Of a stretch of 62,824 nucleotides of DNA, positions 41,956 to 56,866 are shown piece after piece. The position numbers and the translations under genes were made by a program. Under the pieces are notes generated by a model. It saw only the letters and a list, made by a program, of their open reading frames with translations. It did not search any database and was not told where the DNA came from. The stretch comes from Candidatus Pacearchaeota archaeon (lineage in GTDB: Archaea; Nanobdellota; Nanobdellia; Pacearchaeales; GW2011-AR1). Positions within the stretch are counted from its first letter, which is position 1, and each line of letters starts with the position of its first letter. The stretch is from the NCBI GenBank assembly GCA_018303925.1, contig JAGVXF010000010.1:1-62824 (forward strand). The letters run 5' to 3'.

Positions 41956-42393
41956 ATGAATTGCCCGTTTTGCCATAGTACAACATTAAAGGTAACCAAT
42001 AAAAGAAATTCTATTGAAGGGATAAGGAGAAGAAGAGAATGCTTGAAATGCAAAAAACGTTTTACTACGTATGAAAAAATTGCCGAATACGACATTTATG
42101 TCATTAAAAAGGACTCTTCAAGGGAAAAATTTGACCCAGACAAACTGAAAATGGGGCTTGACAAAGCTTTTGAAAAAAGGCCGGTCTCAAAAGATAAAAT
42201 AAATTCAATAGTTTCGGAGATTGAAGAACTGATAAGAAAAAAAGGGAAAACGGAAATAAGGAGCAAATTAATAGGGGAGATTATGATGAAGAAAATAAAA
42301 AAACTTGACAAGGTGGCTTACGTCAGATTTGCATCAGTTTACAGGGATTTTAAGGATATAGAAGATTTTAAAGAGGAATTGAAGGAGTTATAA
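41956..42393 (+). CDS. nrdR: NrdR transcriptional repressor (zinc ribbon plus ATP-cone)
   Basis: MNCPFCHS...CLKCKKRFTTYE zinc ribbon followed by an ATP-cone (VIKKDSSREKFDPDKL...). The stop overlaps the nrdJ start. Confidence 0.9.
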   Translation: MNCPFCHSTTLKVTNKRNSIEGIRRRRECLKCKKRFTTYEKIAEYDIYVIKKDSSREKFDPDKLKMGLDKAFEKRPVSKDKINSIVSEIEELIRKKGKTEIRSKLIGEIMMKKIKKLDKVAYVRFASVYRDFKDIEDFKEELKEL

Positions 42394-44894
42394 TGACGGA
42401 TGAAAATTTAAATAAACCGCTGAAAAAATTAACAAACCTTAATATGAATATTAATCAATTGAAAGTCATTAAGGACAAATACCTTAAAGATTCTCCTACA
42501 GTGGAAGACTGGATAAGAGCAATTTGCCACAGCATTGCACTCTCTGAGATTCTTCATTCTGGAAAAGTAAGCGATGAAGAAATCTTTCGCGGAATTAACC
42601 ATGAAATCATTTCATATGATTCAATGGGAAAAACGGGAAAAATGTATTTACTTCATAAGGGGCTTGAGGATCATAATGAAAGAAAGAAAAATTTTAATAA
42701 ATTCATACAAAACCTGGAAGGAATAAATAAAAAATATCCCGAACTAATAAAAGAAACAGAAGAGAAATTTTACAATCTTTTATCAAGTTTTAATTTTTTG
42801 CCGAATTCCCCCACCTTAATGAATGCGGGAAGGGAACTTCAGCAGTTGTCGGCATGCTTTGTTTTACCTGTGGGTGATTCAATTGAAGAAATTTATGAAT
42901 CTTTGAAAAATATGGCTTTAGTTCACAAGAGCGGAGGAGGAACCGGGTTCTCATTTTCAAATTTGAGGCCCGCAAAAGATGTTGTGATTTCAACAAAAGG
43001 AATTTCTTCAGGCCCTCTTTCATTCATGCAGATTTTTGATAAGTCTACGGAAGTTGTCAAGCAGGGAGGTACAAGAAGAGGAGCAAATATGGGTATTCTT
43101 CATTACACGCATCCCGATATACTCAAGTTTATTGACATGAAAAAAACGCCGGGGGTTATGGAGAATTTTAATGTTTCTGTTACAATAGATGAAAGGTTCA
43201 TGAATGCAGTTAAAAATAACAAGGAATATGAATTAATTAATCCAAGAAGCCATGAGATTGCTGGAAAAATTAATGCAAAAGATGTCTGGGATAAACTCGT
43301 CAGAGGAGCCTGGGAGACAGGAGACCCCGGGATAATAATTATTGACAGAATAAACAATACAGGAAGTAATGCGACACCTCACCTTGGGCAAATTGAATCA
43401 ACGAATCCATGCGGTGAACAGCCTCTTTTGCCGTATGAGCCCTGTAATCTTGGCTCAATAAATCTTTCAAATTTTGTTGATGAGAACAAAAAAAATTTTG
43501 ACTATGAAAAACTAATTGAGACTGTAAAACTTTCGACAAGATTTCTTGATGATGTTATAGATGTAAATTGCTATCCTATCCCGAAAATTGAAGAAATCGC
43601 AAAAAAAACAAGAAGAATTGGTCTTGGGGTTATGGGATGGGCGGAAGCACTTGTTAAATTGAAAATTCCATACAATTCTCCTGAAGCCCTTCTTAAAGCT
43701 GAAGAATTAATGAAAGTGATAAATGAAACGTGCCTTGAGTATTCAAACGAGCTTGCAAAAACCCGGGGAGTTTTTCCTGCTTTTAAAGGAAGTGTTTATG
43801 ACAAAGAAGGTCCTTACTTTAGGAATTACGAAACTTATCCCAGACATTCAGCAAGAACAACAATTGCACCAACGGGGACAATTGCAATTACTGCGGGTCT
43901 GCAAGGGTCGGGAATTGAGCCGTTTTTTGCAGTTGCTTATGTGAGATATAATGCTGCCGGAATCGACGCTTTAAAAAAAGGAGAAACTCCTTCTGGGAAA
44001 GATACCTTTTTTGAAGTAAATCCACTTTTTGAAAAAATCGCCAGAGAAAACAATTATTTTGGTCTTAAAAAAGAAGACCTTTATATAAAAGTTAATGACA
44101 ATCACAAATCCTTATTGGGAATAAAAGAAATTCCTGAAAAAATTCAAAAATTGTTTTTAACTTCACACGATCTAAACCCAAGGGAGCACGTTTTGATGCA
44201 GTGCTCCTTTCAAAAATATACAGACAATGCAGTATCAAAGACTGTCAATTTAAGAAATGAAGCAACTGTTGAAGATGTTGACGAAGTTTACAGGCTTGCT
44301 TACGAAAACGGCGCGAAAGGTGTTACGATCTACAGGGATGGGAGTAAGCAATTTCAGATTCTAAACATTAATGAAAAGGGTAAAAAAGAAGTAAAAAAAG
44401 ATTTGCCCGAGTTTGCTGACTATTACCCGCTCGAAACAGGCCAGGGTCCGATTCATATACATATAAATTACAATGAAGAAAGAATTTCAAAGATTTTTGC
44501 AAATTTGTCCCCTATCGGAACTGAAATTTCAGGAATGGCAACGTCCCTCGCAATTGTTCTTTCAAAATATTTTGAGCTTGGCGGAGACCCTGTGAGAATT
44601 TTAAAGCATCTTAATTCTATAAAGTCAGAAAAGCCTTACGGCTTTGGAAAAAACAGAGTTGATTCAGTTCCACATGCTTTTTCAATAGCAATAAGAAATC
44701 ACCTGATAAAAACAGGAAAATTAAAATCCATAGACAATGGAAATGGTTTTTTATATGCCAACGGAGAAGTTGCAGAAATTGATAAAAATGTGAAGACTCT
44801 TTATTGCTCTAAATGTTTTAGCTCCAACGTCGGAATGATTTCAGGATGCACAGAGCCAACATGCTTTGACTGCGGGTATAGTAAATGCAGTTGA
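42393..44894 (+). CDS. nrdJ: Class II (adenosylcobalamin-dependent) ribonucleotide reductase
   Basis: NPCGEQPLLPYEPCNLGSINL active-site region, 833 aa, C-terminal Cys-rich tail CSKC...CTEPTCFDCGYSKC. Confidence 0.95.
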   Translation: MTDENLNKPLKKLTNLNMNINQLKVIKDKYLKDSPTVEDWIRAICHSIALSEILHSGKVSDEEIFRGINHEIISYDSMGKTGKMYLLHKGLEDHNERKKNFNKFIQNLEGINKKYPELIKETEEKFYNLLSSFNFLPNSPTLMNAGRELQQLSACFVLPVGDSIEEIYESLKNMALVHKSGGGTGFSFSNLRPAKDVVISTKGISSGPLSFMQIFDKSTEVVKQGGTRRGANMGILHYTHPDILKFIDMKKTPGVMENFNVSVTIDERFMNAVKNNKEYELINPRSHEIAGKINAKDVWDKLVRGAWETGDPGIIIIDRINNTGSNATPHLGQIESTNPCGEQPLLPYEPCNLGSINLSNFVDENKKNFDYEKLIETVKLSTRFLDDVIDVNCYPIPKIEEIAKKTRRIGLGVMGWAEALVKLKIPYNSPEALLKAEELMKVINETCLEYSNELAKTRGVFPAFKGSVYDKEGPYFRNYETYPRHSARTTIAPTGTIAITAGLQGSGIEPFFAVAYVRYNAAGIDALKKGETPSGKDTFFEVNPLFEKIARENNYFGLKKEDLYIKVNDNHKSLLGIKEIPEKIQKLFLTSHDLNPREHVLMQCSFQKYTDNAVSKTVNLRNEATVEDVDEVYRLAYENGAKGVTIYRDGSKQFQILNINEKGKKEVKKDLPEFADYYPLETGQGPIHIHINYNEERISKIFANLSPIGTEISGMATSLAIVLSKYFELGGDPVRILKHLNSIKSEKPYGFGKNRVDSVPHAFSIAIRNHLIKTGKLKSIDNGNGFLYANGEVAEIDKNVKTLYCSKCFSSNVGMISGCTEPTCFDCGYSKCS

Positions 44895-45008
44895 ACATCG
44901 CAATTAAGAGACCTGAAAGGCACAAGGCGAAGCACTCGTGAGTTTTTTCTGCAAGAAAAAATACTGAAGCGAAGCGTAGGTATAGTATGACGCAGGAATT
45001 TGTTTAGG
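44890..45008 (+). repeat. Degenerate attC-like site A (good left arm, poor right arm)
   Basis: GTTGAAC-ATCGCAATTAAGAG overlaps the nrdJ TGA and matches the left arms of sites D and F. The only candidate right end is GGAATTT-GTTTAGG. The interior holds two GCGAAGC motifs and a TTTTTTCT-GCA-AGAAAAAA hairpin. Confidence 0.35.
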
Positions 45009-45037
45009 TTTTTACTTATCAAGAAAGATATTTCACA

Positions 45038-45358
45038 CTATCTACTAACTTTTTTATCGATAAATATAGCAATGATATAGATAATAACTAAATTGATAAG
45101 AAACAATAATATTGAGAAATTAGCTCCGAATACCATATCATCTATTATATAAGTTGGTGTAAAGAAAGCGGGAAATCCAATTCCTAATTGTGAATTAAAA
45201 CAATTTGCAGAACTGGTTACACACCTTAGCATTATTGCAAAAGGTAATCCACTTAAGAATTATTCAAGAATGAAATTAATTATTGTTAATGCTAATAGAC
45301 TTAGGAATGAGTATGTAATCTTATTTTTATTCGGTTTAATTAATTCTTTCCAGTTCAT
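45038..45358 (-). pseudogene. Small membrane-protein ORF interrupted by an in-frame TAA (45260-45262)
   Basis: MNWKELIKPNKNKITYSFLSLLALTIINFILE-TAA-FLSGLPFAIMLRCV... is in one frame. The track only lists the distal 64 codons. Confidence 0.35.
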
Positions 45359-45450
45359 CTATACAAAAATATCCAATTACTTATTAATATTGATCGGTAA
45401 TTTCAATCTAAGTAAAAAAACCGTTAAGAATAAATTCTGAGTAATATTGT

Positions 45451-45554
45451 TTATAACGTCAGGGATATACGAAGTTTTTCTGGAGCGAAGCGGAAGAAAA
45501 ATTTGAGCGAAGCTCGAGTGGCAGAGCGAAGCGAAAGTCTGCAAGACGTTCCCA
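45451..45554 (+). repeat. Weak attC-like site B
   Basis: TTATAACGTCAGG...CTGCAAGACGTTCCC, where AACGTC and GACGTT are complementary. The interior carries three GCGAAGC motifs. The core boxes fit the RYYYAAC/GTTRRRY consensus poorly. Confidence 0.3.
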
Positions 45555-45597
45555 AAATCAGAATGATTTTGAGTTCAAAAAAGTGCGATACAATAAA

Positions 45598-45605
45598 TTT
45601 ATATA
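45598..45605 (+). promoter_or_regulatory. TATA box for ORF 45628
   Basis: TTTATATA lies 23 nt upstream of the ATG (leaderless-type spacing). Confidence 0.5.
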
Positions 45606-45627
45606 ATTCTTTAGAATTATCCTTTTT

Positions 45628-46137
45628 ATGGTAGAAATTGTTTTTCAAAGAAAGTATAAAGTAGATAGAGATTCTTTTTCCGAAGAAATAAGAACAAAAT
45701 TTAGTTTTGCTAATGAATATTTTGAAGTTTTGTTAAGTGAAACAGAAGGAGAATCGAAAAATACAGACAGTTTCATTCTAAAAATAATAAAAAGACAAAA
45801 CTTCAAAGAAGAATATACTAAGTTAAATGAAAAAGAAAAGGAATTTGCAAGAGATTTAATTTATACAATTATACAATTAAATCCAAAATTAATTGAAAAG
45901 AAATTTGTCCTGAATGCTCTTTCTAATGAAGAAGCAAAAGGGAAGAAAGCAATTATGAGTTCATTAGAATTGATTGACAAATTTCTTGAAGAAAAAGAAA
46001 AAAATAAAAATAATAAACAAATTCCTTTTCTTGAATCTCAAAACAAATTTTTTTGGATAATAACTGCGGTTGGAAAAAGAATCGTTTCAGCAAATTCTGA
46101 TTATATAGAAAAAAACAATTTCGTAAAAATACTCTAA
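45628..46137 (+). CDS. Hypothetical cassette protein
   Basis: 169-codon ORF, followed 20 nt later by attC-like site C. Confidence 0.45.
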   Translation: MVEIVFQRKYKVDRDSFSEEIRTKFSFANEYFEVLLSETEGESKNTDSFILKIIKRQNFKEEYTKLNEKEKEFARDLIYTIIQLNPKLIEKKFVLNALSNEEAKGKKAIMSSLELIDKFLEEKEKNKNNKQIPFLESQNKFFWIITAVGKRIVSANSDYIEKNNFVKIL

Positions 46138-46156
46138 GAGCACTTTTTTGAATTTC

Positions 46157-46246
46157 ATTTAACATCAGGATTATGAGAAGTTCGCCGTAGGCGAATTTAG
46201 GTGTAGCGAGGTGCAACCGAGCGAAACCGTTAAATCGCTGTTAGTT
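46157..46246 (+). repeat. attC-like site C
   Basis: ATTTAAC-ATCAGGATTATGAG...CCGTTAAATCGCT-GTTAGTT. The arms pair over about 10 bp with bulges on the left arm. Central TTCGCC-GTA-GGCGAA hairpin. Confidence 0.6.
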
Positions 46247-46251
46247 GCCCA

Positions 46252-46300
46252 CGAATACTTGGAGTGGTTGATTTTTAGTGCAACGATGCCGAAGGCAAAA
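46252..46300 (+). repeat. 49-nt conserved block, copy 1 (direct repeat of 50199-50247)
   Basis: CGAATACTTGGAGTGGTTGATTTTTAGTGCAACGATGCCGAAGGCAAAA; 47 of 49 positions are identical to copy 2. Confidence 0.9.
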
Positions 46301-46405
46301 TTTTAGAGTTAAAGCGAACTCTGGGATGGTGGGAACGCCAGAAATTTTTATAATATTTCAGATTGTCGCCGTCGTTTTCGTAAGTTGGGGGGCAGTAGTT
46401 TTTTG

Positions 46406-46428
46406 CTTCTTTTTTTCTAAAAAAGAAG
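46406..46428. repeat. T/A palindrome CTTCTTTTTT-TCT-AAAAAAGAAG followed by a G-run (block 2, copy 1)
   Basis: Perfect 10-bp arms. Related copies lie at 50303-50323 and 52289-52310, and an inverted degenerate copy at about 49817-49845. Confidence 0.85.
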
Positions 46429-46474
46429 AATTTTTGAGGGGGTTTCGGTCGTCACTATATAATGGGCCAAAAGA

Positions 46475-46482
46475 TTTAAATA
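46475..46482 (+). promoter_or_regulatory. TATA box for the RHH-methyltransferase operon
   Basis: The context CCAAAAGATTTAAATA is conserved with 50347-50363. Confidence 0.5.
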
Positions 46483-46526
46483 TAATGCTCATTTATTTAC
46501 ATTTGTATTCAAATGAGGGAAATAAA

Positions 46527-46667
46527 ATGGTTCAAAAAAATGTGACTCTAAGTCTTGATGAAGACACTTACGAAAAATATAGAGAATTTTGTAAGAAAAA
46601 TGCTGTTGCCTTATCAAGAAGTATAGAAGTATTCATGGAAGAAAAAACAAAAAGGGGGGAAAAATGA
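46527..46667 (+). CDS. Ribbon-helix-helix (CopG/controller-like) protein
   Basis: MVQKNVTLSLDEDTYEKYREFCKKNAVALSRSIEVFMEE fits a beta-strand plus two-helix RHH pattern. It overlaps the methyltransferase start. The upstream part of track ORF 46278-46667 is repeat DNA. Confidence 0.55.
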   Translation: MVQKNVTLSLDEDTYEKYREFCKKNAVALSRSIEVFMEEKTKRGEK

Positions 46668-48265
46668 GCCAAGAACTTTTATCAGTAGGTCAGGCATCTC
46701 AATGGGCGAGTGATTATTTAGACAGACCCGTGACTACTTCCAATATTAGTTATTTAATCCAGTACGCAAAAATTAAGAAATATCTTGATGAAGAAAAGAA
46801 AATAAAAGTCAATCTAAATGAATTAAAAGAATATTATGATGAAAATTTAGTAAAAAAACAAGAGTCATGGAAAAGCCAATTAGGGAAAGATTTAAACTGG
46901 GCATTATCTTTCTCGCATTTAAGAGAATCTGATACGACAAAACACGTTCATAGACTACACCCCTATAAAGGAAAGTTTATACCTCAACTTGTAGAATATT
47001 TCTTGGATTCTCATCTAAACACTTTTAAGAAAAAGGTCTTTTTTAAAGAAGGTAATATAATTCTTGACCCATTTATGGGAAGCGGAACAACGCTCGTTCA
47101 ATCATCCGAGATAGGTTTACATTCCATTGGGATAGATGTTTCTGATTTTAATTGTTTAATTTCCAAAGTTAAAATTGAAAAATATGATTTAGTTAGATTG
47201 GATAGAAAAGCAAGAGACATTTGTTTTAAAACAAGAGAATTTAGCCAAAAAGTATTTGATGATTCATTTGATGAACAATTAAAAGAAAAATTAAACGAAT
47301 TTAATAAAAAATATTTTCCTAATCCTGAGTTTAAGAGTAATGTTTGGAAAGGTATAATTAGAAACGAAGAACAATATGGGGAAGAAAAGTTAAAGCAGTT
47401 TCTAAAGGAAAATGAAGAATTTTTTAAAAAGAATGGAACAAAAGACAAATCTAACTTATTAAGTGAAAAAGAGATGAATAATTTTCTCAATAAGTGGTTT
47501 TCAAGAAGAGTAAGACAAGAATTATTTTATTATATAAAACTTTTAAGGGAAATTGGGGATGAAGACTTAAAAAATGTTCTAAGAATTATTTTAAGTAGAA
47601 CTGCTCGTTCGTGTAGGGCTACAACCCACTCGGATTTAGCGACATTAACAGAACCTCAAAATGGACCATATTATTGTAGAAAACACAAGAAATTATGCAC
47701 CCCGATAAACTCTATTGTTAAACACTTAATAAGATACACTTATGACACAATAAACAGATTAAATGAGTTTTCTAAATTAAAAAAAAGTGTATTTAGTAAT
47801 GTTATTCATGGAGATTCAAGAGAAGTAGATATTTTTGGAGAAATCAAAACGCAAAATCCTGAATTTTACAAGTTTTTAGTAAATAAAAAAATAGATGGAG
47901 TTTTTACTTCTCCGCCTTATGTTGGTCAAATAGATTACCATGAACAACACGCTTATGCTTATGAGCTTTTTGATATTGCAAGAAAAGATGATAAAGAAAT
48001 AGGCCCTTTATTCAACGGACAAGGACAGAAAGCAAGGGAGGAATATGTTAAAGGGATAAGCAAAGTTTTCATAAATATAAGTAAATTTGTAAAAGATGAT
48101 GGAGACTTTTTTGTTGTTGCAAATGATAAATATAATCTTTATCCTATAATTGCTGAAAAAAGCGGATTAAAAATAGTAGAACAATTTAAAAGACCTGTTC
48201 TAAACCGAACAGAGCGAGATAGACAACCTTATGCAGAGATTATATTTCATATGAGAAAAAAGTAA
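46664..48265 (+). CDS. Type II DNA methyltransferase (N4-C or N6-A, SPPY type; motif I precedes motif IV)
   Basis: HRLHPYKGKFIPQL and LDPFMGSGTT (motif I) lie near aa 95-155. VFTSPPYVGQIDY (motif IV) lies near aa 415. Confidence 0.85.
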   Translation: MSQELLSVGQASQWASDYLDRPVTTSNISYLIQYAKIKKYLDEEKKIKVNLNELKEYYDENLVKKQESWKSQLGKDLNWALSFSHLRESDTTKHVHRLHPYKGKFIPQLVEYFLDSHLNTFKKKVFFKEGNIILDPFMGSGTTLVQSSEIGLHSIGIDVSDFNCLISKVKIEKYDLVRLDRKARDICFKTREFSQKVFDDSFDEQLKEKLNEFNKKYFPNPEFKSNVWKGIIRNEEQYGEEKLKQFLKENEEFFKKNGTKDKSNLLSEKEMNNFLNKWFSRRVRQELFYYIKLLREIGDEDLKNVLRIILSRTARSCRATTHSDLATLTEPQNGPYYCRKHKKLCTPINSIVKHLIRYTYDTINRLNEFSKLKKSVFSNVIHGDSREVDIFGEIKTQNPEFYKFLVNKKIDGVFTSPPYVGQIDYHEQHAYAYELFDIARKDDKEIGPLFNGQGQKAREEYVKGISKVFINISKFVKDDGDFFVVANDKYNLYPIIAEKSGLKIVEQFKRPVLNRTERDRQPYAEIIFHMRKK

Positions 48266-48266
48266 T

Positions 48267-48980
48267 TTATTTTTCCATCCTTTCTAGTGTTATTTCTGGG
48301 AGTCCAAATTTATCAGCTAATAAAATATAAAATCCTTCTGTTAAAACATTTAATTCATTTATTTCCATCATGAATTTGACTAAGGGCATCTCTCTAGGGT
48401 TTGTATCGAATATATCGGAACACAACTTTAACTTTCCACCTTGACCATGTTCCCAAAAGAAAGTATAATGTGTAAGGGAATTCCTTGTTCCAGAATCAAA
48501 ATAATTTAGATATTTGTTTGTAGAATATTTTTGTTTTAGGAAATTGATAGCGTTTCCAATACCATGGATTTCTTTATGATTCTTCCCAAATTTTTTCCAA
48601 TCAATAAAGAATAAAAAATAAATTTTTAATCTCTCTAAAAAAGTAACATATGTGTTTACCAAGATAGAATGATAATGTTCTCCCAATCTAAAAGTGTCTC
48701 CAATATTAAATGCTTTTTTTAAGCATTCTAATTTTTCTTCAGTTTCTTTTTTATTGCTTGAATTAAATACTGAACCAAAATCTTTAGATAATTTTAAAGC
48801 CATATTACAACTTTTTGTAATATTCTGTAATCTTGTTACCTGTTCTTCTGAGAAATTTCTTAACAAAAGTCCATCTGAATCAAGATTATTAATTAGTTCC
48901 TTAATTGAGATTTCATAATCTTCAAAAAATTTTCTTAATCCGCTTCCCATCCCAGATTTAAAATTTTCGATGCTTGTCAT
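48267..48980 (-). CDS. Hypothetical helical protein in the R-M module with an Rx4H motif (possible HEPN-like)
   Basis: GTRNSLTHYTFFW contains R-x4-H. It is co-oriented and contiguous with the putative endonuclease gene. Confidence 0.35.
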   Translation of the reverse strand: MTSIENFKSGMGSGLRKFFEDYEISIKELINNLDSDGLLLRNFSEEQVTRLQNITKSCNMALKLSKDFGSVFNSSNKKETEEKLECLKKAFNIGDTFRLGEHYHSILVNTYVTFLERLKIYFLFFIDWKKFGKNHKEIHGIGNAINFLKQKYSTNKYLNYFDSGTRNSLTHYTFFWEHGQGGKLKLCSDIFDTNPREMPLVKFMMEINELNVLTEGFYILLADKFGLPEITLERMEK

Positions 48981-49754
48981 TTAAACATCCATTTTCTTTT
49001 CAGCAACTTCTTTTATCTTATTCTGTATTTTTTCCTTAAACTCTTTACCAACTTCATCAAAGATTTCTAAAACTTCTTCATAAGTTCCTTTTCCACCAAG
49101 AAGTTCCCAGAATTTTTCAGCAACATAAAGCTCTTTTTCTTCATCCAAAAATCCTTGCATTGTAAATCTGTTATATGGTTCTGGATGATAAGGATTATAA
49201 GGAATAGCCAAAATTGTATTTACTTTCTTTTTTCTGAGTGCAACCCATTCCAATAACTTCTGCTTTGATTTAACAAAAACATCTATATTGGGTTTTGCTG
49301 TTTTTATCTCAATATAATATTCATCATTGCCTTTCTTTAAGAATAAATCGGCTCTGACTTTTATTTTTCTTCCACCATTTTTGTTACATTGCAAAATATC
49401 TTTTATTTCTTTTTCTTTATTTGCAGTTCTTGTTCCATTCTTTATTTCTTGAAGAATCTGGGAAATTACAGAGTTCTCTTCATTTGTAATTTCTCCCTCA
49501 ACATCATAACCAGTTTTTACTTCATCGTAATGAGCTAATGCGACAATTTCAGAAATTTTCTCATAAACTGACATTCCCAATGTTGTAGCTAATGAATGTA
49601 TGAAAGAATAAGAAGCTACTTTTTCGGAATCTTGCATAAGTTTAACCAAAAAAGGCATAGAGGTTGTTTCTCTTACATATTTGGACAACTTGTCATTTAG
49701 TTTTGACCTTAGCAAATTCTTGATTTCGTTAATTTGATTTTCATTGAGTGTCAT
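48981..49754 (-). CDS. Putative type II restriction endonuclease (PD-(D/E)XK; possibly TdeIII-like)
   Basis: VRADLFLKKGNDEYYIEIKTAKPN gives a D...E-x-K catalytic pattern. It is convergent with the methyltransferase. Confidence 0.5.
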   Translation of the reverse strand: MTLNENQINEIKNLLRSKLNDKLSKYVRETTSMPFLVKLMQDSEKVASYSFIHSLATTLGMSVYEKISEIVALAHYDEVKTGYDVEGEITNEENSVISQILQEIKNGTRTANKEKEIKDILQCNKNGGRKIKVRADLFLKKGNDEYYIEIKTAKPNIDVFVKSKQKLLEWVALRKKKVNTILAIPYNPYHPEPYNRFTMQGFLDEEKELYVAEKFWELLGGKGTYEEVLEIFDEVGKEFKEKIQNKIKEVAEKKMDV

Positions 49755-49865
49755 CTTAATAAGAAAGATTGCCTTTTATTTATAAATGCTATTATTTACG
49801 TAACCGAAACCCCCTCTTTCTTTAATAAAAAACAAGAAAAATATTTGGGTGCAACGAAGTGAAAC

Positions 49866-49926
49866 CTCTTATCGTTTGTTAGGCGAAATTTTAATTTCGT
49901 GAGTTCTCTCGTTGGTTCGATAAGAG
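49866..49926 (+). repeat. Family-2 hairpin, copy a (GTTAGGC in the loop)
   Basis: CTCTTATCG-ttt-GTTAGGC...(33 nt)...CGATAAGAG with a perfect 9-bp stem and an inner GAAAT/ATTTC hairpin. Confidence 0.6.
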
Positions 49927-50065
49927 AAGTATTTTTCTGTTTTTACAATCGAGCAAACCACAGTTTGCGAGACTATCTGTCGCGTGAGCGACTTCGAGCC
50001 GATCCCCTAATTTTTCTGAAAGAAAAATATTCGTAATCGTTTTCGAGCCCACCGAGTAATATGTC

Positions 50066-50193
50066 GCCTAACATCGCGATTAAGCGACCCGTAGGGCTCG
50101 GGCGGAGTGAAACGACCCCGAGTGTTTTTGCGAAGCAAAAATATGGGTGGAAAAACCTGCAAGGTTTTGGAACCGCTTAATCTGCTGTTAGTT
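50066..50193 (+). repeat. attC-like site D
   Basis: GCCTAAC-ATCGCG-ATTAAGCG...CGCTTAAT-CTGCT-GTTAGTT. The centre holds four small hairpins, including TTTTTGCGAAGCAAAAA and AAAACC-TGCA-AGGTTTT. Confidence 0.7.
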
Positions 50194-50198
50194 TCTCC

Positions 50199-50247
50199 CG
50201 AATACTTGGAGGGATTGATTTTTAGTGCAACGATGCCGAAGGCAAAA
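50199..50247 (+). repeat. 49-nt conserved block, copy 2
   Basis: CGAATACTTGGAGGGATTGATTTTTAGTGCAACGATGCCGAAGGCAAAA. Confidence 0.9.
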
Positions 50248-50302
50248 AATCAAAGTCGTCGTGTCTATTGTTTTTTATGGGGGTTTACGCCGCCGTTTTT
50301 TG

Positions 50303-50323
50303 CTTCTTTTTTTAAAAAAGAAG
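50303..50323. repeat. T/A palindrome CTTCTTTTTT-T-AAAAAAGAAG plus G-run (block 2, copy 2)
   Basis: Perfect 10-bp arms, followed by GTGGGG. Confidence 0.85.
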
Positions 50324-50355
50324 AGTGGGGATTTCCGTTTAATGACCAAAAGATA

Positions 50356-50363
50356 TTTAAATA
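50356..50363 (+). promoter_or_regulatory. TATA box for the ArsR operon
   Basis: TTTAAATA lies 24 nt upstream of the ATG at 50387. Confidence 0.5.
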
Positions 50364-50386
50364 TTAGCTTATTCTAATACAAGAAT

Positions 50387-50701
50387 ATGAAAGAACTATA
50401 TGAAATTCATGCTGAAATGTGCAAAGTATTTTCAAATTCAACAAGGTTGGAAATATTGAATTTATTGAGAGATAAAGAATTATCAGTAACAGAATTGATA
50501 AAAAAGACAAGATTAAGTCAAGCCAATATCTCCCAGCATTTGTCAATTATGAAATCCAAAGGAATTGTTGTCTCAAATAGAAAGGGCAAGAATATCTATT
50601 ACAGACTCACAAATCCAAAAATAATCAAAGCATTTGATATAATAAGAGATGTTTTGGCTGAAAAATTAAAGAAAAATGGGAAATATGTTAAAAACTTATG
50701 A
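50387..50701 (+). CDS. ArsR/SmtB-family HTH regulator
   Basis: FSNSTRLEILNLL...ELSVTELIKKTRLSQANISQHLSIMKSKGIV winged-HTH pattern. Confidence 0.85.
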   Translation: MKELYEIHAEMCKVFSNSTRLEILNLLRDKELSVTELIKKTRLSQANISQHLSIMKSKGIVVSNRKGKNIYYRLTNPKIIKAFDIIRDVLAEKLKKNGKYVKNL

Positions 50702-50710
50702 GGTGCTAGA

Positions 50711-51274
50711 ATGAAAAAGATATTTACAATCTTGATTTTCGGTATGTTGTTATTAAGTGTAAGTTTAGTTTTTGCTCACGAACATGATTTTAATGAAACA
50801 AAACAAATTATAAATTCTGGAATTAGTTGCGATAAACTCACAGATGAACAGCTTGAATCCATTGGTGATTATTATATGGAGCAAATGCACCCTGGCGAAG
50901 CCCATAAGATGATGGATCAAATGATGGGTGGAGAAGGTTCTGAAAGTTTAAGACAAGTACAGATTAACATGGCAAAACGGCTTTATTGTAATGAAGATAT
51001 CGGAGGAATGATGGGTGGTGGCATGATGAATATGATGATGGGAAATAATATGATGGGAAACTATCCAGCATATTATGGTTATAATAATTTTTGGAATGTA
51101 CTTTGGATGGTTTTTTTAATAGGAGCAATTGCGCTGATAGTTTGGCTGATTTATAAATTTACAAAAAAAGGGAAAGAATCTGAAACTCCAATTAATATTT
51201 TACAGAAAAGATATGCTAAAGGAGAAATAAACAAAAAACAATTTGAGGAAATGAAAAAGGGGTTAAGGAAGTGA
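50711..51274 (+). CDS. Secreted Met/Gly-rich protein with a TM anchor and a C-terminal SHOCT domain
   Basis: Signal-like N-terminus, MMGGGMMNMMMGNNMMG tract, one TM segment, then ILQKRYAKGEINKKQFEEMKKGL (SHOCT-like). Confidence 0.6.
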   Translation: MKKIFTILIFGMLLLSVSLVFAHEHDFNETKQIINSGISCDKLTDEQLESIGDYYMEQMHPGEAHKMMDQMMGGEGSESLRQVQINMAKRLYCNEDIGGMMGGGMMNMMMGNNMMGNYPAYYGYNNFWNVLWMVFLIGAIALIVWLIYKFTKKGKESETPINILQKRYAKGEINKKQFEEMKKGLRK

Positions 51275-51582
51275 GGCTCATGGAAAAAGATAAAAGCACA
51301 TTGGTATGGATTTTCATTGCTGTAATTGTTGTTCTTTTTTTCATAGGAAGTTTTGGAATGGGCAGTTATGGTATGATAGGTTTCGGAATGGGATTTGGAT
51401 TTATTTTCATGTTGCTTTTCTGGGGTCTTATTATATGGCTTATAGTCACTTTAATCAATACGAGCCAATCCAATAAAAGTGAGCCAGATTCATTAACAAT
51501 CCTAAAAAGAAGATATGCTTCTGGAGAAATCACAAAGAGGCAATATGAAGAAATGAGGAAGGAATTAAACATCGGAATTTAA
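51271..51582 (+). CDS. Small membrane protein with a C-terminal SHOCT domain
   Basis: Two TM segments and ILKRRYASGEITKRQYEEMRKEL. The last codons lie inside attC-like site E. Confidence 0.6.
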   Translation: MRLMEKDKSTLVWIFIAVIVVLFFIGSFGMGSYGMIGFGMGFGFIFMLLFWGLIIWLIVTLINTSQSNKSEPDSLTILKRRYASGEITKRQYEEMRKELNIGI

Positions 51583-51652
51583 CGAAGTCGCCAAAGGCGA
51601 TTTGGGTGGAGAAGCCTGCAAGGTTTCGGAACCGTTAAATTTCCTGTTAGTT
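51564..51652 (+). repeat. attC-like site E
   Basis: ATTAAAC-ATCGG-AATTTAACG...CGTTAAATT-TCCT-GTTAGTT with a 9-bp perfect inner stem. The centre has TCGCC-AAA-GGCGA and the CCTGCAAGG hairpin shared with site D. Confidence 0.7.
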
Positions 51653-51719
51653 GCGTCTTTTCGTAGAAAAGACCTAGGGATAGTGCAACGATTTTTGCGA
51701 AGCAAAAAATCCCGAAGAG

Positions 51720-51734
51720 TTTAGAATTACCACA
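51720..51734. repeat. Left copy of a 15-bp perfect inverted repeat bracketing ORF 51735-52010
   Basis: TTTAGAATTACCACA. The reverse complement lies at 52046-52060. Confidence 0.9.
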
Positions 51735-52010
51735 CTATCGTTTTTTATATTTCAATTTTAATGCTAAAATTAGAATTATTGCACAAGATACAAAATTTAA
51801 TCCTGTAACAATTTCCAACAATAAATCAGAGATTACTAAAAGTGCATAAAGAAAAGTAATAAGACTACAAAAAGTCCAAATGATGTAAGAATTGATATTT
51901 GCACTTGCTATTTTTTTCATTAAATCTCTTATTGTTGGAAAGTATCCTATCGTTGCAATAATTCCTGTACTCGCATAAAGAAAGGCAATAATTGTTAATA
52001 TGAATTCCAT
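51735..52010 (-). CDS. SemiSWEET/PQ-loop-like 3-TM protein
   Basis: 91 aa with three hydrophobic helices. GYFPTIRDLMKK sits at the position of the PQ motif. Resembles the 20013-20369 product in layout. Confidence 0.5.
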   Translation of the reverse strand: MEFILTIIAFLYASTGIIATIGYFPTIRDLMKKIASANINSYIIWTFCSLITFLYALLVISDLLLEIVTGLNFVSCAIILILALKLKYKKR

Positions 52011-52045
52011 AATACATTTATTAAAATTGAAATGAATATAAAGTT

Positions 52046-52060
52046 TGTGGTAATTCTAAA
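52046..52060. repeat. Right copy of the 15-bp perfect inverted repeat
   Basis: TGTGGTAATTCTAAA is the reverse complement of 51720-51734. Confidence 0.9.
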
Positions 52061-52064
52061 TTGC

Positions 52065-52201
52065 AACTAACATCGCGATTAAGAGAAGTTGTTTGCAGTA
52101 ACTTTAATCTATAAATAGGCAAACAATTTGGGCTAATTTCTGGTTTTCACTAAGAAAATTTGCGAAGCAAAAAGAAATTACCTCTTAATCTGCTGTTGCT
52201 T
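52065..52201 (+). repeat. attC-like site F
   Basis: AACTAAC-ATCGCG-ATTAAGAG...CTCTTAAT-CTGCT-GTTGCTT. The arms are as in site D, with a compensatory C:G to A:T change. The centre differs (TTGTTTGC/GCAAACAA hairpin and TTTGCGAAGCAAA). Confidence 0.7.
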
Positions 52202-52288
52202 GACCGAACGAAGTGAGGCACGAGTGGAGCAAGAAGCGACCTCGTGAGTTTTAATTTTTCTTTCAGGGTGGGGCCCGCCCGCTTTTTG

Positions 52289-52310
52289 TTTCTTTTTTTC
52301 TAAAAAGAAA
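52289..52310. repeat. T/A palindrome TTTCTTTTT-TTCT-AAAAAGAAA plus G-run (block 2, copy 3)
   Basis: Perfect 9-bp arms, followed by ATGGGGGAG. Confidence 0.8.
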
Positions 52311-52323
52311 ATGGGGGAGTTTT

Positions 52324-53007
52324 TTATCTTCCAATTTTTTGTAAAAATTCTTCTCTTGTAATTTCTTTAAGAGTCTTCAAATCAAGATAATAATTCTTTG
52401 GTTCAACTTCAACTTGCATTGACAAAGAATTTATTTTACCGCAATCACATTCTATAACATAAAAATTAGGTGTGTCAGAAGTGTAGCTCATTAAGTTACC
52501 CCCACATTTAAGAGAACATATTTCGTTTGATTCTGAATTAGTAAGAACACTTGTCTTAGGATAACCTTTTTGATTAGCCAATTCTATAAATGAATTTTCT
52601 GCCTTAATGGTTTGAGAATTTTCAACAATACCATTAATCTTATTTGAAATTGAGGGATAGAATTGTAAGGATAGAACGATAATAATTAATAATACTATGA
52701 AAGATAACCAAAAGAATCCTTTTCTATTCTGTATTTTATATTTGTTTTTATGATAATCATCTTGAGATAAGGATTTAATTGACCAATAAATTTTCTTTCC
52801 ATTAAACATACAGATTAGCAAAATAAGAGGAATTGATATCATCAAAGCAGTAGCAGAATTATGATTAAATCCCAATGTCCTAATGTAATTATATGATAAA
52901 TATAATAAAAAGATTAAAAATCCAACAACGAAAAGATAAACAATCATCTTGTATTTTTCTTCTTGTTCTTCCCTTGTAATAAGTCTAACTTTAATAGGTT
53001 CTGCCAT
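52324..53007 (-). CDS. Hypothetical multi-TM protein with a Cys-containing extracytoplasmic C-terminal domain
   Basis: Four hydrophobic segments, then a soluble domain with CSLKCGG...CDCG. Confidence 0.5.
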   Translation of the reverse strand: MAEPIKVRLITREEQEEKYKMIVYLFVVGFLIFLLYLSYNYIRTLGFNHNSATALMISIPLILLICMFNGKKIYWSIKSLSQDDYHKNKYKIQNRKGFFWLSFIVLLIIIVLSLQFYPSISNKINGIVENSQTIKAENSFIELANQKGYPKTSVLTNSESNEICSLKCGGNLMSYTSDTPNFYVIECDCGKINSLSMQVEVEPKNYYLDLKTLKEITREEFLQKIGR

Positions 53008-53059
53008 AAAATAAATAGAAAAGCCAAACTTAATAAATATATGCTTCTAATTTGATTTT

Positions 53060-53269
53060 ATGGAACTAAAAAAACAAAAAGAAATTAGACAACACAAAGC
53101 AAATTTAGGCATAGGTGTTGCTGGAGGATTTGTCGCTGGTGGGAGTTTGCTTGCTTATCAAATATTAATACCATATGGTTTGGGTTATGCTCTTCTGGGA
53201 GCGGTTTTTGTTGCTTTAGTTATCTATAAAATGTCAGTTAAGATGATAGAGAAAAATGTTAATCGCTAA
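53060..53269 (+). CDS. Small 2-TM membrane protein
   Basis: 69 codons, Gly/Ala-rich helices. Confidence 0.4.
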   Translation: MELKKQKEIRQHKANLGIGVAGGFVAGGSLLAYQILIPYGLGYALLGAVFVALVIYKMSVKMIEKNVNR

Positions 53270-53315
53270 AACTCCCCCTAAATAAATAGAAAAATTTGGG
53301 AGAGCGACAGCGAAC

Positions 53316-53379
53316 CTTTTATCCATTGTTATGCAAAGTGCAAAGCATTTTGTTGTTTTTCTCGTCGGTCGGATAAAAG
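53316..53379 (+). repeat. Family-2 hairpin, copy b (GTTATGC in the loop)
   Basis: CTTTTATCC-att-GTTATGC...GGATAAAAG with a 9-bp stem. Two positions differ from copy a and both are compensated. Confidence 0.6.
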
Positions 53380-53496
53380 AAGTTTTTCTCTGAAACGAAG
53401 TTTCAGCTATCTGTCCGAAGGACTGCGGGCAATCTCTCACTATCTTTGGGCGGGAAAGAAAGAAAAATTAAAATTTGGGCGAAGCCAAGCAACATA

Positions 53497-53526
53497 AGAT
53501 TATCAATAGTTTATTATTGATAATCT
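53497..53526. other. Perfect 12-6-12 palindrome; candidate recombinase core site (dif/attI-like) or operator
   Basis: AGATTATCAATA-GTTTAT-TATTGATAATCT. It ends 25 nt upstream of the recombinase TATA box. Confidence 0.55.
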
Positions 53527-53581: not shown

Positions 53582-54397
53582 ATGAATGGACTGAGATTAA
53601 AATTAAAAAGAGAACTTGAAATAAGAAATTTTTCTAATCAGACTGTTAAAGCGTATCTTTATTCGGTTGATAAATTTGTGGAATTTTCTAAAGGAAAAGG
53701 ACTAAATGAAGATTCAATTAAAGACTATATTCAAAAAGGTCTTGAAAACAAAAATCCAACGAGTGTTAGAAGGGATTTATTTGCAATTAAATTTTTCTTT
53801 GAAAAGGTATTAAAGCAAAAGGTAAACATCCCAAACCCAAAGAAAAATAAGACTCTCCCGGAGATTCTCACAATTGAAGAAATAAAAAAATTAATCGAAT
53901 CTGCAAATAATATCAAACACCGATTAATAATCAAACTTCTTTATGGATGCGGATTAAGAGTTTCTGAGATTGTAAACCTTAAAGTAAATGATTTGAACTT
54001 TGTTGAAGAATTAATTAAAATAAATCTTGCAAAAGGAAAAAAAGACAGATTTGTTAAGATACCTTCATCAATAAAAGATGAACTTGAAAGTTATTTAAAA
54101 TTAAATAAGCATAATACTTTATTTCCTTCAAATAGAGGTGGAAAATTAACAAAAGATACTATTCAAAAAATTGTTCAAAACTCTGCTAAAAGAGCAGGAA
54201 TTAAAAAAAGAGTTTATCCACATTTATTGAGGCATAGTTTTGCAACGCATCTTCTTGAACAGGGGACGGATTTAAGAATGATTCAAAAATTGCTTGGTCA
54301 TTCTGATATAAAAACCACTCAAATTTATACTCAAATTTCCCAAGCTTCAATAAAAAATATAAAAAGTCCGCTTGATAATTTACAATATGGCAAGTAA
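53582..54397 (+). CDS. xerA: Xer-type tyrosine recombinase (XerA/XerC/XerD-like; no IntI-specific insertion)
   Basis: N-terminal SAM-like core-binding domain, GLRVSEI (box I Arg), KGKKDR, HLLRHSFATHLL and LLGHSDIKTTQIYTQ (His and Tyr). Only about 40 aa lie between KGKKDR and HLLRH. Confidence 0.9.
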   Translation: MNGLRLKLKRELEIRNFSNQTVKAYLYSVDKFVEFSKGKGLNEDSIKDYIQKGLENKNPTSVRRDLFAIKFFFEKVLKQKVNIPNPKKNKTLPEILTIEEIKKLIESANNIKHRLIIKLLYGCGLRVSEIVNLKVNDLNFVEELIKINLAKGKKDRFVKIPSSIKDELESYLKLNKHNTLFPSNRGGKLTKDTIQKIVQNSAKRAGIKKRVYPHLLRHSFATHLLEQGTDLRMIQKLLGHSDIKTTQIYTQISQASIKNIKSPLDNLQYGK

Positions 54398-55955: not shown

Positions 55956-56068
55956 TTAATTTGTAATATCATAATAACGTAATCTAATTTATTAATTATG
56001 ATTCTTAATACACTTAAAATATATTTAATCATAACAATTATTAAAAAGGCAGAGTGAGATTTTGTTTC

Positions 56069-56560
56069 ATGATAAGTTGGGATGAGTCTTTTATGTCAAT
56101 GGTTTACCTTGTTGCAATGAAAAGCAAAGATGAATCGACCCATGTCGGGGCCGTGGTTGTTGGTCCTGACAATGAGATTAAATCGACAGGTTATAATAGT
56201 TTTGTAAGAAAGTTGAATGATCATCTTACGATGAGGCAGGAAAGGCCGGAAAAATATTATTGGTTTGAGCACGCTGAAAGGAATGCAATTTATAATGCAA
56301 CCTTGAACGGAGTCTCGCTTAAAGGATGCAAGATATACACAAATGGTGTTCCATGCATGGATTGCGCAAGAGGAGTTGTGCAATCAGGAATTCTGGAGGT
56401 CATCATTGACAAGGGATGGGAAAAAAATAATCCGGAAGATTGGGCAAAACATGCAGAAAAAAGCATTGAAATGTTTAAAGAAGTGGGGGTTAAAATAAGG
56501 TATTGGGAAGGAAAGCTTTTAATTCCTGAAAAGTTCATGAGGGGGAAAATATTAAAATGA
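56069..56560 (+). CDS. dCMP deaminase (ComEB-like)
   Basis: HAERNAI and PCMDCA zinc-binding motifs. Start set at the internal ATG (MISWDESF). Confidence 0.85.
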   Translation: MISWDESFMSMVYLVAMKSKDESTHVGAVVVGPDNEIKSTGYNSFVRKLNDHLTMRQERPEKYYWFEHAERNAIYNATLNGVSLKGCKIYTNGVPCMDCARGVVQSGILEVIIDKGWEKNNPEDWAKHAEKSIEMFKEVGVKIRYWEGKLLIPEKFMRGKILK

Positions 56561-56847: not shown

Positions 56848-56866
56848 AAAACAATAAAAAAGTAAA

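Follow-up and report, generated by a model that had tools for sequence, protein, structure and literature searches.

attC-like sites probably punctuate a mobile gene cassette array, putatively served by XerA, in a DPANN archaeon

A stretch of 62,824 nt (hereafter the window) from a tiny groundwater archaeon of the Pacearchaeota/Woesearchaeota type, a DPANN member, contains several imperfect inverted repeats in an accessory array of 8.7 kb that is flanked by a ribonucleotide reductase gene and xerA (Table 1). This raises the question of what these repeats are and which enzyme, if any, acts on them. Clusters of archaeal attC sites without integrases have already been published. We propose that the repeats are probably attC-like recombination sites punctuating a mobile cassette array just upstream of xerA, and that XerA would run this platform, which resembles either an integron or an IMEX, a mobile element exploiting Xer recombination at dif.

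Table 1. Positions of the sites, gene segments, and bordering genes of the array in the window.
Feature	Position	Strand	Basis or content
Ribonucleotide reductase gene	42393..44894	+	Pfam Ribonuc_red_lgC, 2.8e-129
Site A, decayed	44894..45004	+	Pattern match and sequence
Site B, decayed	45456..45550	+	Read from sequence
Site C	46161..46242	+	Covariance model 36.3 bits, E = 2e-4; weak family member
Segment C-D	46243..50069		Pfam
Type-2 module, conserved, structured, upstream of D	49824..49950	+	Right-arm-like stretch at 49866-49887
Site D	50070..50189	+	Covariance model 29.9 bits; folding z = -5.4; register
Segment D-E	50190..51567	+	Pfam: ArsR-family regulator, two SHOCT-domain membrane proteins
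Site E	51568..51648	+	Covariance model 44.8 bits; folding z = -2.7; homology
Segment E-F	51649..52068		91-aa ORF, - strand
Site F	52069..52197	+	Folding z = -5.3; homology; register
Last segment	52198..53490		227-aa membrane ORF (-), 69-aa ORF (+), second type-2 module (53266-53396)
Terminal site	53491..53526	+	AACA-TA-AGATTATCAATA-GTTTAT-TATTGATAATCT
xerA	53582..54397	+	271-aa tyrosine recombinase, NCBIfam NF040815 XerA_Arch

A preliminary description of this DNA proposed four well-formed attC-like sites, C to F, which held for D, E, and F. These three read AAC...GTT on the + strand around centres that are unrelated and unequal in length; in each, a 4-bp AACA/TGTT helix leads, past two bulged nucleotides (TC) of the left arm, into a second helix of at least 11 bp. 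Site D, for example, runs AACA-TC (bulge)-GCGATTAAGCGACC ... CGCTTAAT-C(T)GC-TGTT, from AACA at 50070 to TGTT at 50189. The folding z-scores of D, E, and F refer to single-stranded DNA of the + strand compared with dinucleotide shuffles. Comparison of the arms of D and F recovered the compensated difference described earlier (ATTAAGCG/CGCTTAAT versus ATTAAGAG/CTCTTAAT), and the two inverted 7-mers reported in the left arm of D are present. The right half said to be common to C, D, and E was confirmed, with three matches versus 0.01 expected. Site E is 94% identical to a site in another species (L052_7730) and site F is 89% identical to site L048_6051, while the strain variant L010 has a different site, G, in place of F. 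Site C did not conform to the description: 4 of its 8 L-box positions are paired, its folding z-score is -1.7, and in its minimum-energy fold the arms do not pair in the manner proposed. Because a covariance model built solely from the sites of other genomes still recognizes it, site C is a decayed (degenerate) member of the site family.

The ribonucleotide reductase gene forms the core-genome border on the left side of the array, and its stop codon, as read from the sequence, overlaps the AACA of a further decayed site, A. The left arm of this site is intact and of the D type (AACATCGCAATTAAGAGACC), homologous to L048/D-type sites; the right arm is degenerate (..GGAATT TGTT). Site B reads AACG...CGTT, a compensated R-box variant, with TCAGG GATATACG AAGTT as its left arm; its L' arm is lost, and the covariance model gave no match to it. 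The intergenic regions are unusually G+C-rich, with many small hairpins carrying GAA, GCA, or GTA loops.

Each cassette holds between zero and five accessory genes, mostly with their own promoters, and gene segments occur in both orientations. The segment between C and D encodes a DUF6364 protein, an N6/N4 DNA methylase (+), a 237-aa ORF of no known function, and a TdeIII restriction endonuclease (-), that is, restriction-modification cargo with its own TATA-like promoters. MFS genes stand at this place in the strain variant L023. The E-F segment is bordered by TGTTAGTTGC ... GCAACTAACA and the last segment by TGTT-GCTTG ... CAAGC-AACA. The type-2 module near D contains a right-arm-like stretch, CTCTTATCG-TT-TGTT-AGGCGA (49866-49887), whose flank is complementary to TCGCCT-AACA of site D.

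Arrays of the same sites, all in one orientation, precede xerA in at least 10 related species, and the sites occur in at least 120 metagenome contigs. Their general plan is an imperfect inverted repeat. The R box (AACA...TGTT) is invariant, 2-3 nt bulge out on the 5' arm straight after AACA, the L helix of about 11 bp varies in sequence yet remains self-complementary, and the centre of 20-130 nt is free. The R boxes match the RYYYAAC/GTTRRRY consensus (e.g., GCCTAAC/GTTAGGC). Across 348 kb comprising the window and related loci, sites with a perfect 8/8 L box numbered 24 on the + strand and none on the - strand, with 0.5 expected from dinucleotide shuffles; a chance origin of the family is therefore excluded. 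A pattern describing the left arm alone found 91 matches, in 62 of which a fully complementary (8/8) L' precedes TGTT; none showed this when the L box was swapped for that of another match. The additional copies that the preliminary description called for were found in many genomes, where their arms stay complementary and where they lie without exception between genes, next to accessory ones.

To the right of the array, the product of xerA scored 249.7 bits against the XerA_Arch equivalog NF040815 (cut-off 220) and 213 bits against the integron integrase family TIGR02249 (cut-off 265), the latter match being split in two pieces. Its best solved structure was P. abyssi XerA (4A8E, E = 4e-48, aligned end to end). 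Residues 200-241 of VchIntIA (2A3V) had no counterpart in the protein, i.e., it is without the IntI-specific insertion. The recombinase is a XerA orthologue and resembles an ordinary chromosome-dimer resolvase. In bacteria, the IntI domain is required for attC recombination. Strictly speaking, the sites do not belong to the classical integron family, because the recombinase is a XerA without the IntI-specific domain and a dif-like site adjoins it.

This terminal site is a perfect 12-6-12 palindrome of dif architecture whose right side is without TGTT, and its end lies 56 nt ahead of the start of xerA. A dif site comprises two 11-nt inverted repeats and a 6-nt spacer, and in the bacterial xerS/difSL and xerH/difH modules, which have a single recombinase, it adjoins xer (PMC8371274). 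A terminal site was found in 17 related genomes; in the 13 loci where the palindrome was measured, its arms span 10-15 nt around a spacer of 6 nt (10 loci) or 4 nt (three loci), and it ends 48-110 nt ahead of xerA. The newest-looking tandem units in L048 abut the terminal site. This element is a candidate insertion point (attI analogue), a candidate dif site, or both. Judged by eye, the likeness between the L helices and the dif arms is limited to a short outer motif.

The covariance model matched 23 times in 1.23 Mb, always on the + strand and upstream of an archaeal xerA, and gave no match in bacterial Xer and integron loci. Where loci were found via the site alone, their tyrosine recombinases were solely XerA-like (10 loci), all downstream and on the same strand. 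A recombinase was present in 10 of the 80 site-derived metagenome loci, most of these contigs being short, and eight such loci had none within 5-15 kb of downstream sequence. Adjacency and constant geometry make XerA the candidate enzyme.

An ordinary integrase-less cassette array (CALIN), served in trans by an IntI elsewhere in the community or in these incomplete genomes and with xerA as an incidental neighbour or a hot spot, is an unlikely alternative. A CALIN is defined by two or more attC sites that are spaced closer than 4 kb on a contig free of IntI (Ghaly 2022, IntegronFinder), and sites C to F lie 3.8, 1.4, and 0.4 kb from one another with no IntI present. Most archaeal integrons are CALINs, and Pacearchaeales MAGs have been listed with two or three attCs and no IntI (Ghaly et al. 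2022, PMC9668308). The fit of the R boxes to the consensus agrees with this alternative, as does the longer left arm, which is like the top strand of a classical attC. However, wherever the locus has a recombinase, across at least 10 species and in 10 metagenome loci, xerA keeps the same geometry, downstream on the same strand and with an AACA-bearing terminal site, and a profile that included Vibrio IntIs detected no IntI-type ORF in the 381 kb surrounding 102 sites. Moreover, the unit boundaries lie mostly at the AAC box, not at G|TT, and the Pacearchaeales attC tested by Ghaly et al. belongs to a different, classical family.

The cassette boundaries carry a signature known from integrons. 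Between neighbouring sites, the 6 nt that follow GTT of the first are complementary to the 6 nt that precede AAC of the second, with a mean of 4.67 of 6 positions over 30 junctions versus 2.49 +/- 0.22 under permutation. The corresponding mean was 4.79 of 6 for 43 independent metagenome junctions, versus 2.94 +/- 0.17. The two flanks of one site showed no mutual complementarity (mean 2.4). Units are also duplicated, and exchanged between arrays and strains. A 2.5-kb unit is common to L048 and L056, its homology stopping at an AACA box on either side, L048 has three copies of a 213-nt unit, two of them in tandem adjoining the terminal site, and the strain variants L010 and L023 contain other cassettes. 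In L037, the most similar relative with upstream sequence (78% XerA identity), the terminal site is present and no site was detected in 10 kb of upstream flank. Homology between arrays breaks off precisely at AAC and GTT boxes. Counting the homology ends no more than 12 nt away from a box gave 23 for AAC and 11 for GTT, 34 in all. The AAC-box boundary is supported by L048 and L056, and the GTT-box boundary by L010 (F versus G) and by L052 versus L059. Since breakpoints occur at both boxes, a single fixed crossover point is not established.

Breakpoints at both boxes would also suit an arrangement in which site bodies act as separate modules, the two arms being independent double-stranded Xer core sites (AAC-6 nt-ATTAAG on the left) recognized by XerA, with segments exchanged or inverted as in pdif modules. 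The pdif modules of Acinetobacter plasmids have plain 28-bp duplex sites, are plasmid-borne, and have no covarying hairpin between sites. The likeness lies in alternating, inversely oriented Xer-type sites bounding exchangeable gene modules; the covarying hairpin pairing is confined to the archaeal sites. Each arm is laid out like two inverted half-sites with a 5-6-nt spacer, gene segments lie in either orientation, and the terminal site has the build of an ordinary duplex dif. Such duplex sites would have no need of L''/L' complementarity, yet in set A4 (90 distinct metagenome sites) 96.5% of cells are paired and 10 of the 11 L-helix pairs changed on both sides in a compensatory manner. The covariation score of this set was 0.479 versus 0.153 +/- 0.009 in shuffles, and that of set A3 (22 distinct sites, 93.9% paired) was 0.432 versus 0.112 +/- 0.02, with 0/500 shuffles as high in either case. 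Folding is likewise far better than in shuffles: over 31 sites the median z-score was -4.4, with 25 below -2, and the + strand folds more stably than the - strand in 28 of the 31. In addition, a right-arm spacer of just 2-4 nt leaves too little room for the usual Xer central region. We consider the duplex arrangement quite improbable. Folding, covariation, and the 2-3-nt left-arm bulge correspond to attC anatomy, and the earlier proposal of selection on a folded structure, in attC-like sites with a two-monomer core layout, was supported by every check suggested with it, the covariation being highly significant in each of two independent sets of sites.

It is very improbable that the sites are structured RNAs (terminators, small RNAs, or structures in 3'-UTRs) or miniature transposons bounded by terminal inverted repeats, despite the hairpin-rich intergenic DNA and the other conserved structured modules beside them. 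An Rfam search of the window matched only three tRNAs and placed the sites in no family at gathering score, and G-U pairs are rare in sets A3 and A4. An RNA function would not explain the neighbour-flank complementarity, the AAC-ended duplications, or the fixed place ahead of a recombinase gene. A transposon was rejected on copies confined to one array in one orientation, with none dispersed elsewhere in the window. No target-site duplications were seen at the sites.

Several known systems resemble the proposed XerA-served array in part. Integrons share with it the arrays of accessory-gene cassettes, imperfect inverted repeats whose R box is of the RYYYAAC...GTTRRRY type and whose L box covaries, a single arm with unpaired bases, a variable centre, a post-GTT flank complementary to the pre-AAC flank of the next site, a tyrosine recombinase gene with a fixed terminal site at one end, and cargo of mainly unknown or defence-type genes. 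They differ in that the recombinase gene beside the archaeal array encodes a XerA orthologue that has no IntI-specific domain, a dif-type palindrome forms the fixed site, the boundaries fall mostly at the AAC box and some at the GTT box, the cassettes are often multigene, in either orientation and with their own promoters, and conserved non-coding modules flank the sites. The bulge lies on the same arm as the putative AAC-box crossover, which is not so in a classical attC. Among IMEX, the single-stranded attP of CTX-phi folds into a dif-mimicking hairpin. IMEX similarly use a host Xer recombinase without a dedicated integrase and, as we infer here, a folded single-stranded hairpin substrate, and co-oriented elements pile up beside a dif left intact at one end. 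The present system differs in being archaeal with XerA as its single recombinase, in having small cassettes, some gene-free, rather than phages, in its integron-like R/L box design, and in a putative crossover at an AACA box outside the dif palindrome instead of in the 6-nt spacer. The xerS/difSL, xerH/difH, and archaeal XerA/dif systems have one Xer recombinase and a two-repeat dif with a 6-nt spacer as well, but are described for chromosome-dimer resolution only, with no cassette array attached.

In the mechanism that these features suggest, a site in single-stranded form would fold into a hairpin, more stably on the + strand, and its R and L helices with the bulged spacer between them could imitate the two arms of a Xer core site. 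The XerA-family enzyme encoded beside the array, which is without the domain by which integron integrases read extrahelical bases, would then exchange strands in the R box. XerA as the enzyme, the folded single-stranded substrate, and the cleavage position are inferred; the anatomy, the covariation, the boundary signature, the duplication and exchange of units, and the constant geometry at xerA are shown. If crossovers fall mostly at AAC|A, as the boundaries suggest, the locus would be a classical integron mirrored: array, terminal site, and then a recombinase gene pointing away from the array. The fixed terminal site, an AACA box fused to a dif-type 12-6-12 palindrome, would serve as attI, and new units would enter beside it. 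Exchange on either strand might be possible and would account for breakpoints at both boxes.

Integron integrases are thought to descend from Xer-like recombinases, and the origin of folded single-stranded attC recombination is an open question that a widespread archaeal system of this kind would make directly testable. We found no description in the literature of a XerA/dif link of archaeal attC-like arrays. For the wider proposition our judgement is evenly balanced: DPANN archaea of the Pacearchaeota/Woesearchaeota type may have built integron-like gene capture on housekeeping XerA/dif, with attC-like hairpins, a Xer enzyme without the IntI domain, and the AACA-dif palindrome as attI, either as an independent invention of the integron or as a living analogue of the Xer-to-IntI transition. 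If so, at least some archaeal attC clusters called integrase-less would be complete platforms whose recombinase was overlooked, and they could be a major channel through which accessory genes, among them those for restriction-modification and other defences, move in DPANN archaea whose genomes are very small.

Some gene replacements in the strain variant L023 break at a T-rich palindrome and not at a site.

All window sites fell within 8.7 kb bounded on the left by a ribonucleotide reductase gene and on the right by xerA, which encodes a tyrosine recombinase, and no further sites of the family were found elsewhere in the 62.8-kb window. Direct reading of 45800-52600 agreed with the anatomy that the preliminary description had given for sites D, E, and F; the AACA...TGTT helix (R box) is invariant, the left arm carries a 2-nt bulge (TC), and the inner helix is unbroken over at least 11 bp, for example, GCGATTAAGCG paired with CGCTTAAT-C(T)GC. 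Their centres differ in length and are unrelated in sequence. Folded as single-stranded DNA (+ strand), D, E, and F gave z scores of -5.4, -2.7, and -5.3, respectively, against dinucleotide shuffles. The compensatory change reported between D and F was confirmed, as was the right half common to C, D, and E (3 matches vs 0.01 expected). Site C had also been described as well formed, and this did not hold: 4 of its 8 L-box pairs form, its z is -1.7, and the arms are unpaired in the minimum-energy fold. It was still recognized, at 36 bits, by a covariance model made solely from the sites of other genomes. Over 31 sites, the median folding z was -4.4, and the + strand was more stable than the - strand in 28.

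Sites, bordering genes, and conserved non-coding modules (window positions unless a related locus, L plus number, is named)
Feature	Position	Remark
Ribonucleotide reductase gene	42393-44894	left border of the site stretch
Site A, decayed	44894-45004	overlaps stop codon of the gene upstream
Site B, decayed	45456-45550	compensated AACG/CGTT box
Site C	46161-46242	+ strand
Site D	50070-50189	+ strand
Site E	51568-51648	+ strand
Site F	52069-52197	+ strand
64-nt module	46237-46300, 50184-50247	right after TGTT of C and D
Type-2 module	49824-49950, 53266-53396	immediately before the left box at some sites
Type-2 module, related loci	L056 40-168, 2626-2758, 5162-5290, 7321-7428; L048 9234-9366; L053 774-927	
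T-rich/A-rich palindromes (TTTTTGCTTCTTTTTTTCTAAAAAAGAAGA)	46396-46433, 50293-50330, 52279-52316	80-150 nt after sites, before TATA-like promoters
Reverse-strand-like palindrome copies	near 49770-49830 and 53270	
Terminal site	53491-53526	AACA-TA-AGATTATCAATA-GTTTAT-TATTGATAATCT
Tyrosine recombinase gene (xerA)	53582-54397	right border of the site stretch

The window G+C content of 32% and an intron-containing tRNA (59991-60107, 117 nt; Rfam 57 bits, missed by ARAGORN) identify the host as an archaeon. Contigs identical to the window come from Rifle groundwater metagenomes, and the closest genomes are Pacearchaeota/Woesearchaeota MAGs.

The surroundings of XerA relatives were taken from 80 genomes and scanned for AACA, a 4-6-nt spacer, and an 8-nt L'' (left arm of the inner helix), then an 8-nt L' (right arm), a 2-5-nt spacer, and TGTT. 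The same sites appeared in at least 10 archaeal species, and all the real ones lay upstream of xerA and on its strand, in arrays of up to six. All 24 perfect (8/8) L boxes were on the + strand and none was on the - strand; the expected number was 0.5. The covariance model was seeded with 11 non-window sites with equal spacers, after a gapless MAFFT alignment (A1) had proved out of register. It made 23 matches in 1.23 Mb, all on the + strand upstream of archaeal xerA, and none on bacterial loci, including Vibrio-type integron loci. Its default search misses centres longer than about 110 nt, that of F among them, and such sites were recovered by the pattern scan; with filters off, scores were poorer and long-centre sites were still missed.

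The first site set had been chosen for complementarity, and for this reason a pattern describing the left arm only provided the independent test. It was found on at least 120 metagenome contigs, and in 62 of 91 matches a perfect complementary L' and then TGTT followed, compared with 0 when the L box of another match was used as the control. The covariance model located 93 sites on the metagenome contigs, in one orientation per contig and up to 9 per array. The alignments of sites from related genomes and metagenome contigs (A3, A4) were fitted to the covariance model; 93.9% of cells were paired in the 23 model matches, where 9 of 11 L-helix pairs vary on both sides, and 96.5% in the metagenome sites, where 10 of 11 pairs show compensatory changes, in agreement with the covariation proposed earlier. 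The covariation score of the metagenome sites was 0.479 vs 0.153 +/- 0.009. On viral contigs, the both-arm pattern gave 5 matches, all attributable to chance and devoid of arm complementarity. All results are based on MAGs and metagenome contigs.

Whether further copies always flank accessory genes had been suggested as a check; they were always intergenic, with accessory genes as cargo. The window sites separate a TdeIII restriction endonuclease and an N6/N4 methylase, an ArsR regulator and two SHOCT membrane proteins, and small ORFs with no family match. The cargo of other arrays mostly had no Pfam match; the matches comprised a GmrSD restriction enzyme, MarR-type regulator, DsbA, M23 peptidase, and 2H phosphoesterase. 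Downstream of xerA (56054-57427), two ORFs, one for a dCMP/cytidine deaminase and the other AAA-kinase-like, both partially matched the anti-phage dCTP deaminase model NF041025. In L001, the contig extends further and includes an MmeI-type restriction-modification gene followed by an IS240-type transposase. This region may be a defence-rich neighbourhood. At 52273, the window is without 39 nt present in every other assembly of the population, and at 37863-37962, between tRNA synthetase and Laminin_G genes, a stretch of about 1.1 kb with a 151-aa ORF is absent relative to loci L021 and L022; these gaps are due either to variation among strains or to differing assemblies.

The 271-aa recombinase of the window is a XerA orthologue. 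It scored 249.7 bits against NCBIfam NF040815 (cut-off 220), and its best solved structure was P. abyssi XerA. The integron-integrase model matched it below the cut-off and in two split parts, and the alignment to VchIntIA omits residues 200-241, which are the IntI-specific domain. Tyrosine recombinases in the metagenome loci found through their sites were all XerA-like (10 loci, 38-75% identical to the window XerA), and all were downstream of the sites on the same strand. On eight site-bearing contigs, the 5-15 kb downstream contained no recombinase gene. The nearest bacterial relatives of the window XerA, from Bacteroidota and Nitrospirota (L060-L069), match it about as closely (40-46% identity) as other archaeal XerA do (42-48%); they are also short and without the IntI insertion, and the covariance model had no match in their surroundings.

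In 17 related genomes, a terminal site closely precedes xerA, and its inverted repeat was measurable in 13. In these 13 loci, an AACA box whose left flank complements that of the neighbouring site is followed by 1-5 nt and the inverted repeat, with no TGTT at the right. The repeat arms are 10-15 nt and carry at most one mismatch, the spacer is 6 nt in 10 loci and 4 nt in 3, and 48-110 nt separate the site from the xerA start. Similar sites also precede more distant XerA-like genes in metagenome loci. Archaeal dif consists of two 11-nt inverted repeats and a 6-nt spacer, with cleavage at the spacer ends (PMC8371274). Stem-loops of unrelated att sites are reported to be bound by P. abyssi XerA as well, at lower affinity (Cortez et al. 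2010, cited in PMC8371274).

The junctions between neighbouring sites carry a cassette signature. An unbiased scan of 9 kb for GTT-N5...N5-AAC inverted repeats gave 89 matches vs about 50 in shuffles and was too noisy, so the flank rule was tested solely on junctions of independently defined sites. The 6 nt after the GTT of one site complemented the 6 nt before the AAC of the next at 4.67/6 positions vs 2.49 +/- 0.22 in permutations (30 junctions), whereas the two flanks of the same site reached just 2.4/6. In 43 independent metagenome junctions the value was 4.79/6 vs 2.94 +/- 0.17. In the window, GTTAGTTGC of E pairs with GCAACTAAC of F, and GTTGCTTG of F with CAAGCAAC of the terminal site. 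Integron cassettes show such neighbour-flank complementarity because the crossover falls inside the R box.

Between arrays, shared sequence stops at the boxes. A 2.5-kb unit of a site body and three genes, with AACA at both ends, is common to L048 and L056, and a gene-less 213-nt unit has three copies in L048, two of which form a tandem adjoining the terminal site. Segments upstream are alike through AACAT and then enter differing site bodies (L040/L056; window D/L050/L056). In strain variant L023, MFS genes replace the restriction-modification cargo, and the break falls 180 nt after C, in a T-rich palindrome. The closest relative with upstream sequence (L037, 78% XerA identity) has the terminal site, and no site was detected in its 10-kb upstream flank. 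A synteny comparison around xerA revealed no conserved neighbours between species, which left no ancestral empty site to align. The E-F segment contains a reversed 91-aa ORF bracketed by a perfect 15-bp inverted repeat (TTTAGAATTACCACA; 51716-51730 / 52047-52061), and the segment may be invertible or nested.

The locus would thus resemble an integron in mirror image, in which the array leads to the terminal site and to a recombinase gene pointing away from the array. In the proposed unit, a site body is joined to its downstream segment, and most crossovers would fall at AAC/A. Units would enter at the terminal site, given that tandem young-looking ones adjoin it and decayed sites A-C occupy the opposite end of the array. 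In the folded + strand, the bulged spacer would set the R helix apart from the L helix, in a layout like that of a Xer core site, and cleavage at 5'-AAC/A would be carried out by a monomer on the R helix. From its adjacency and its position relative to the arrays, we infer XerA to be the enzyme. Some breakpoints lie at the GTT box: strain variant L010 has another gene and a site G in place of F, with identical downstream sequence, and L052 vs L059 shows the same pattern. Here, the - strand hairpin could be used as well, as the sites are nearly symmetric and there is no IntI domain to read extrahelical bases; alternatively, recombination may extend to the duplex arms.

Ghaly et al. (2022) reported integrons in 75 archaeal MAGs with six IntIs, all carrying the IntI domain, and the majority of the elements were attC clusters without an integrase (PMC9668308). 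Its data S1 includes two Pacearchaeales MAGs of family GW2011-AR1, with 3 and 2 attCs and no IntI, and in that study Xer serves as an outgroup only (PMC9668308). The Pacearchaeales attC tested there is a classical attC of a family different from the window sites (PMC9668308). Among the papers searched, none connected archaeal arrays of attC-like sites with XerA or dif. The likeness to integrons lies in the site anatomy and cassette signature; the difference lies in their defining feature, an IntI with an additional domain, which was looked for at the window locus and found to be lacking. We therefore place the system outside the integron family in the strict sense. IMEX elements such as CTX-phi use a host Xer and a folded hairpin beside dif, and by analogy the window locus would do likewise. 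Three other readings were ruled out: CRISPR-type repeats, as no identical repeats occur; intrinsic terminators, as the host is archaeal and sites occur between divergent genes too; and MITEs, as the sites are not dispersed.

Conserved non-coding modules accompany the sites. For the type-2 module, RNAalifold predicts 28 pairs, 8 with compensatory changes, and its interspecies conservation (73-89%) exceeds that of xerA coding DNA (about 70%). It resembles a permuted site: L'-like CTCTTATCG, TT, TGTT, about 45 nt, L''-like CGATAAGAG, and AAGT. The two window copies of the 64-nt module are 92% identical, and the module also follows sites in seven related loci (L046, L048, L051, L052, L055, L056, and L059), so the conserved unit may reach past the hairpin. 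The T-rich/A-rich palindromes are probably bidirectional archaeal terminators, and L023 departs from the window exactly at 46427, within one of them. All three modules may be part of the system. Intergenic stretches in 44900-53500 have a G+C content above that of the genes and are dense in mini-hairpins with GAA, GCA, or GTA loops, such as TTTTTGCGAAGCAAAAA at 50125, 51692, and 52159. GCGAAGC is the classic, very stable DNA mini-hairpin.
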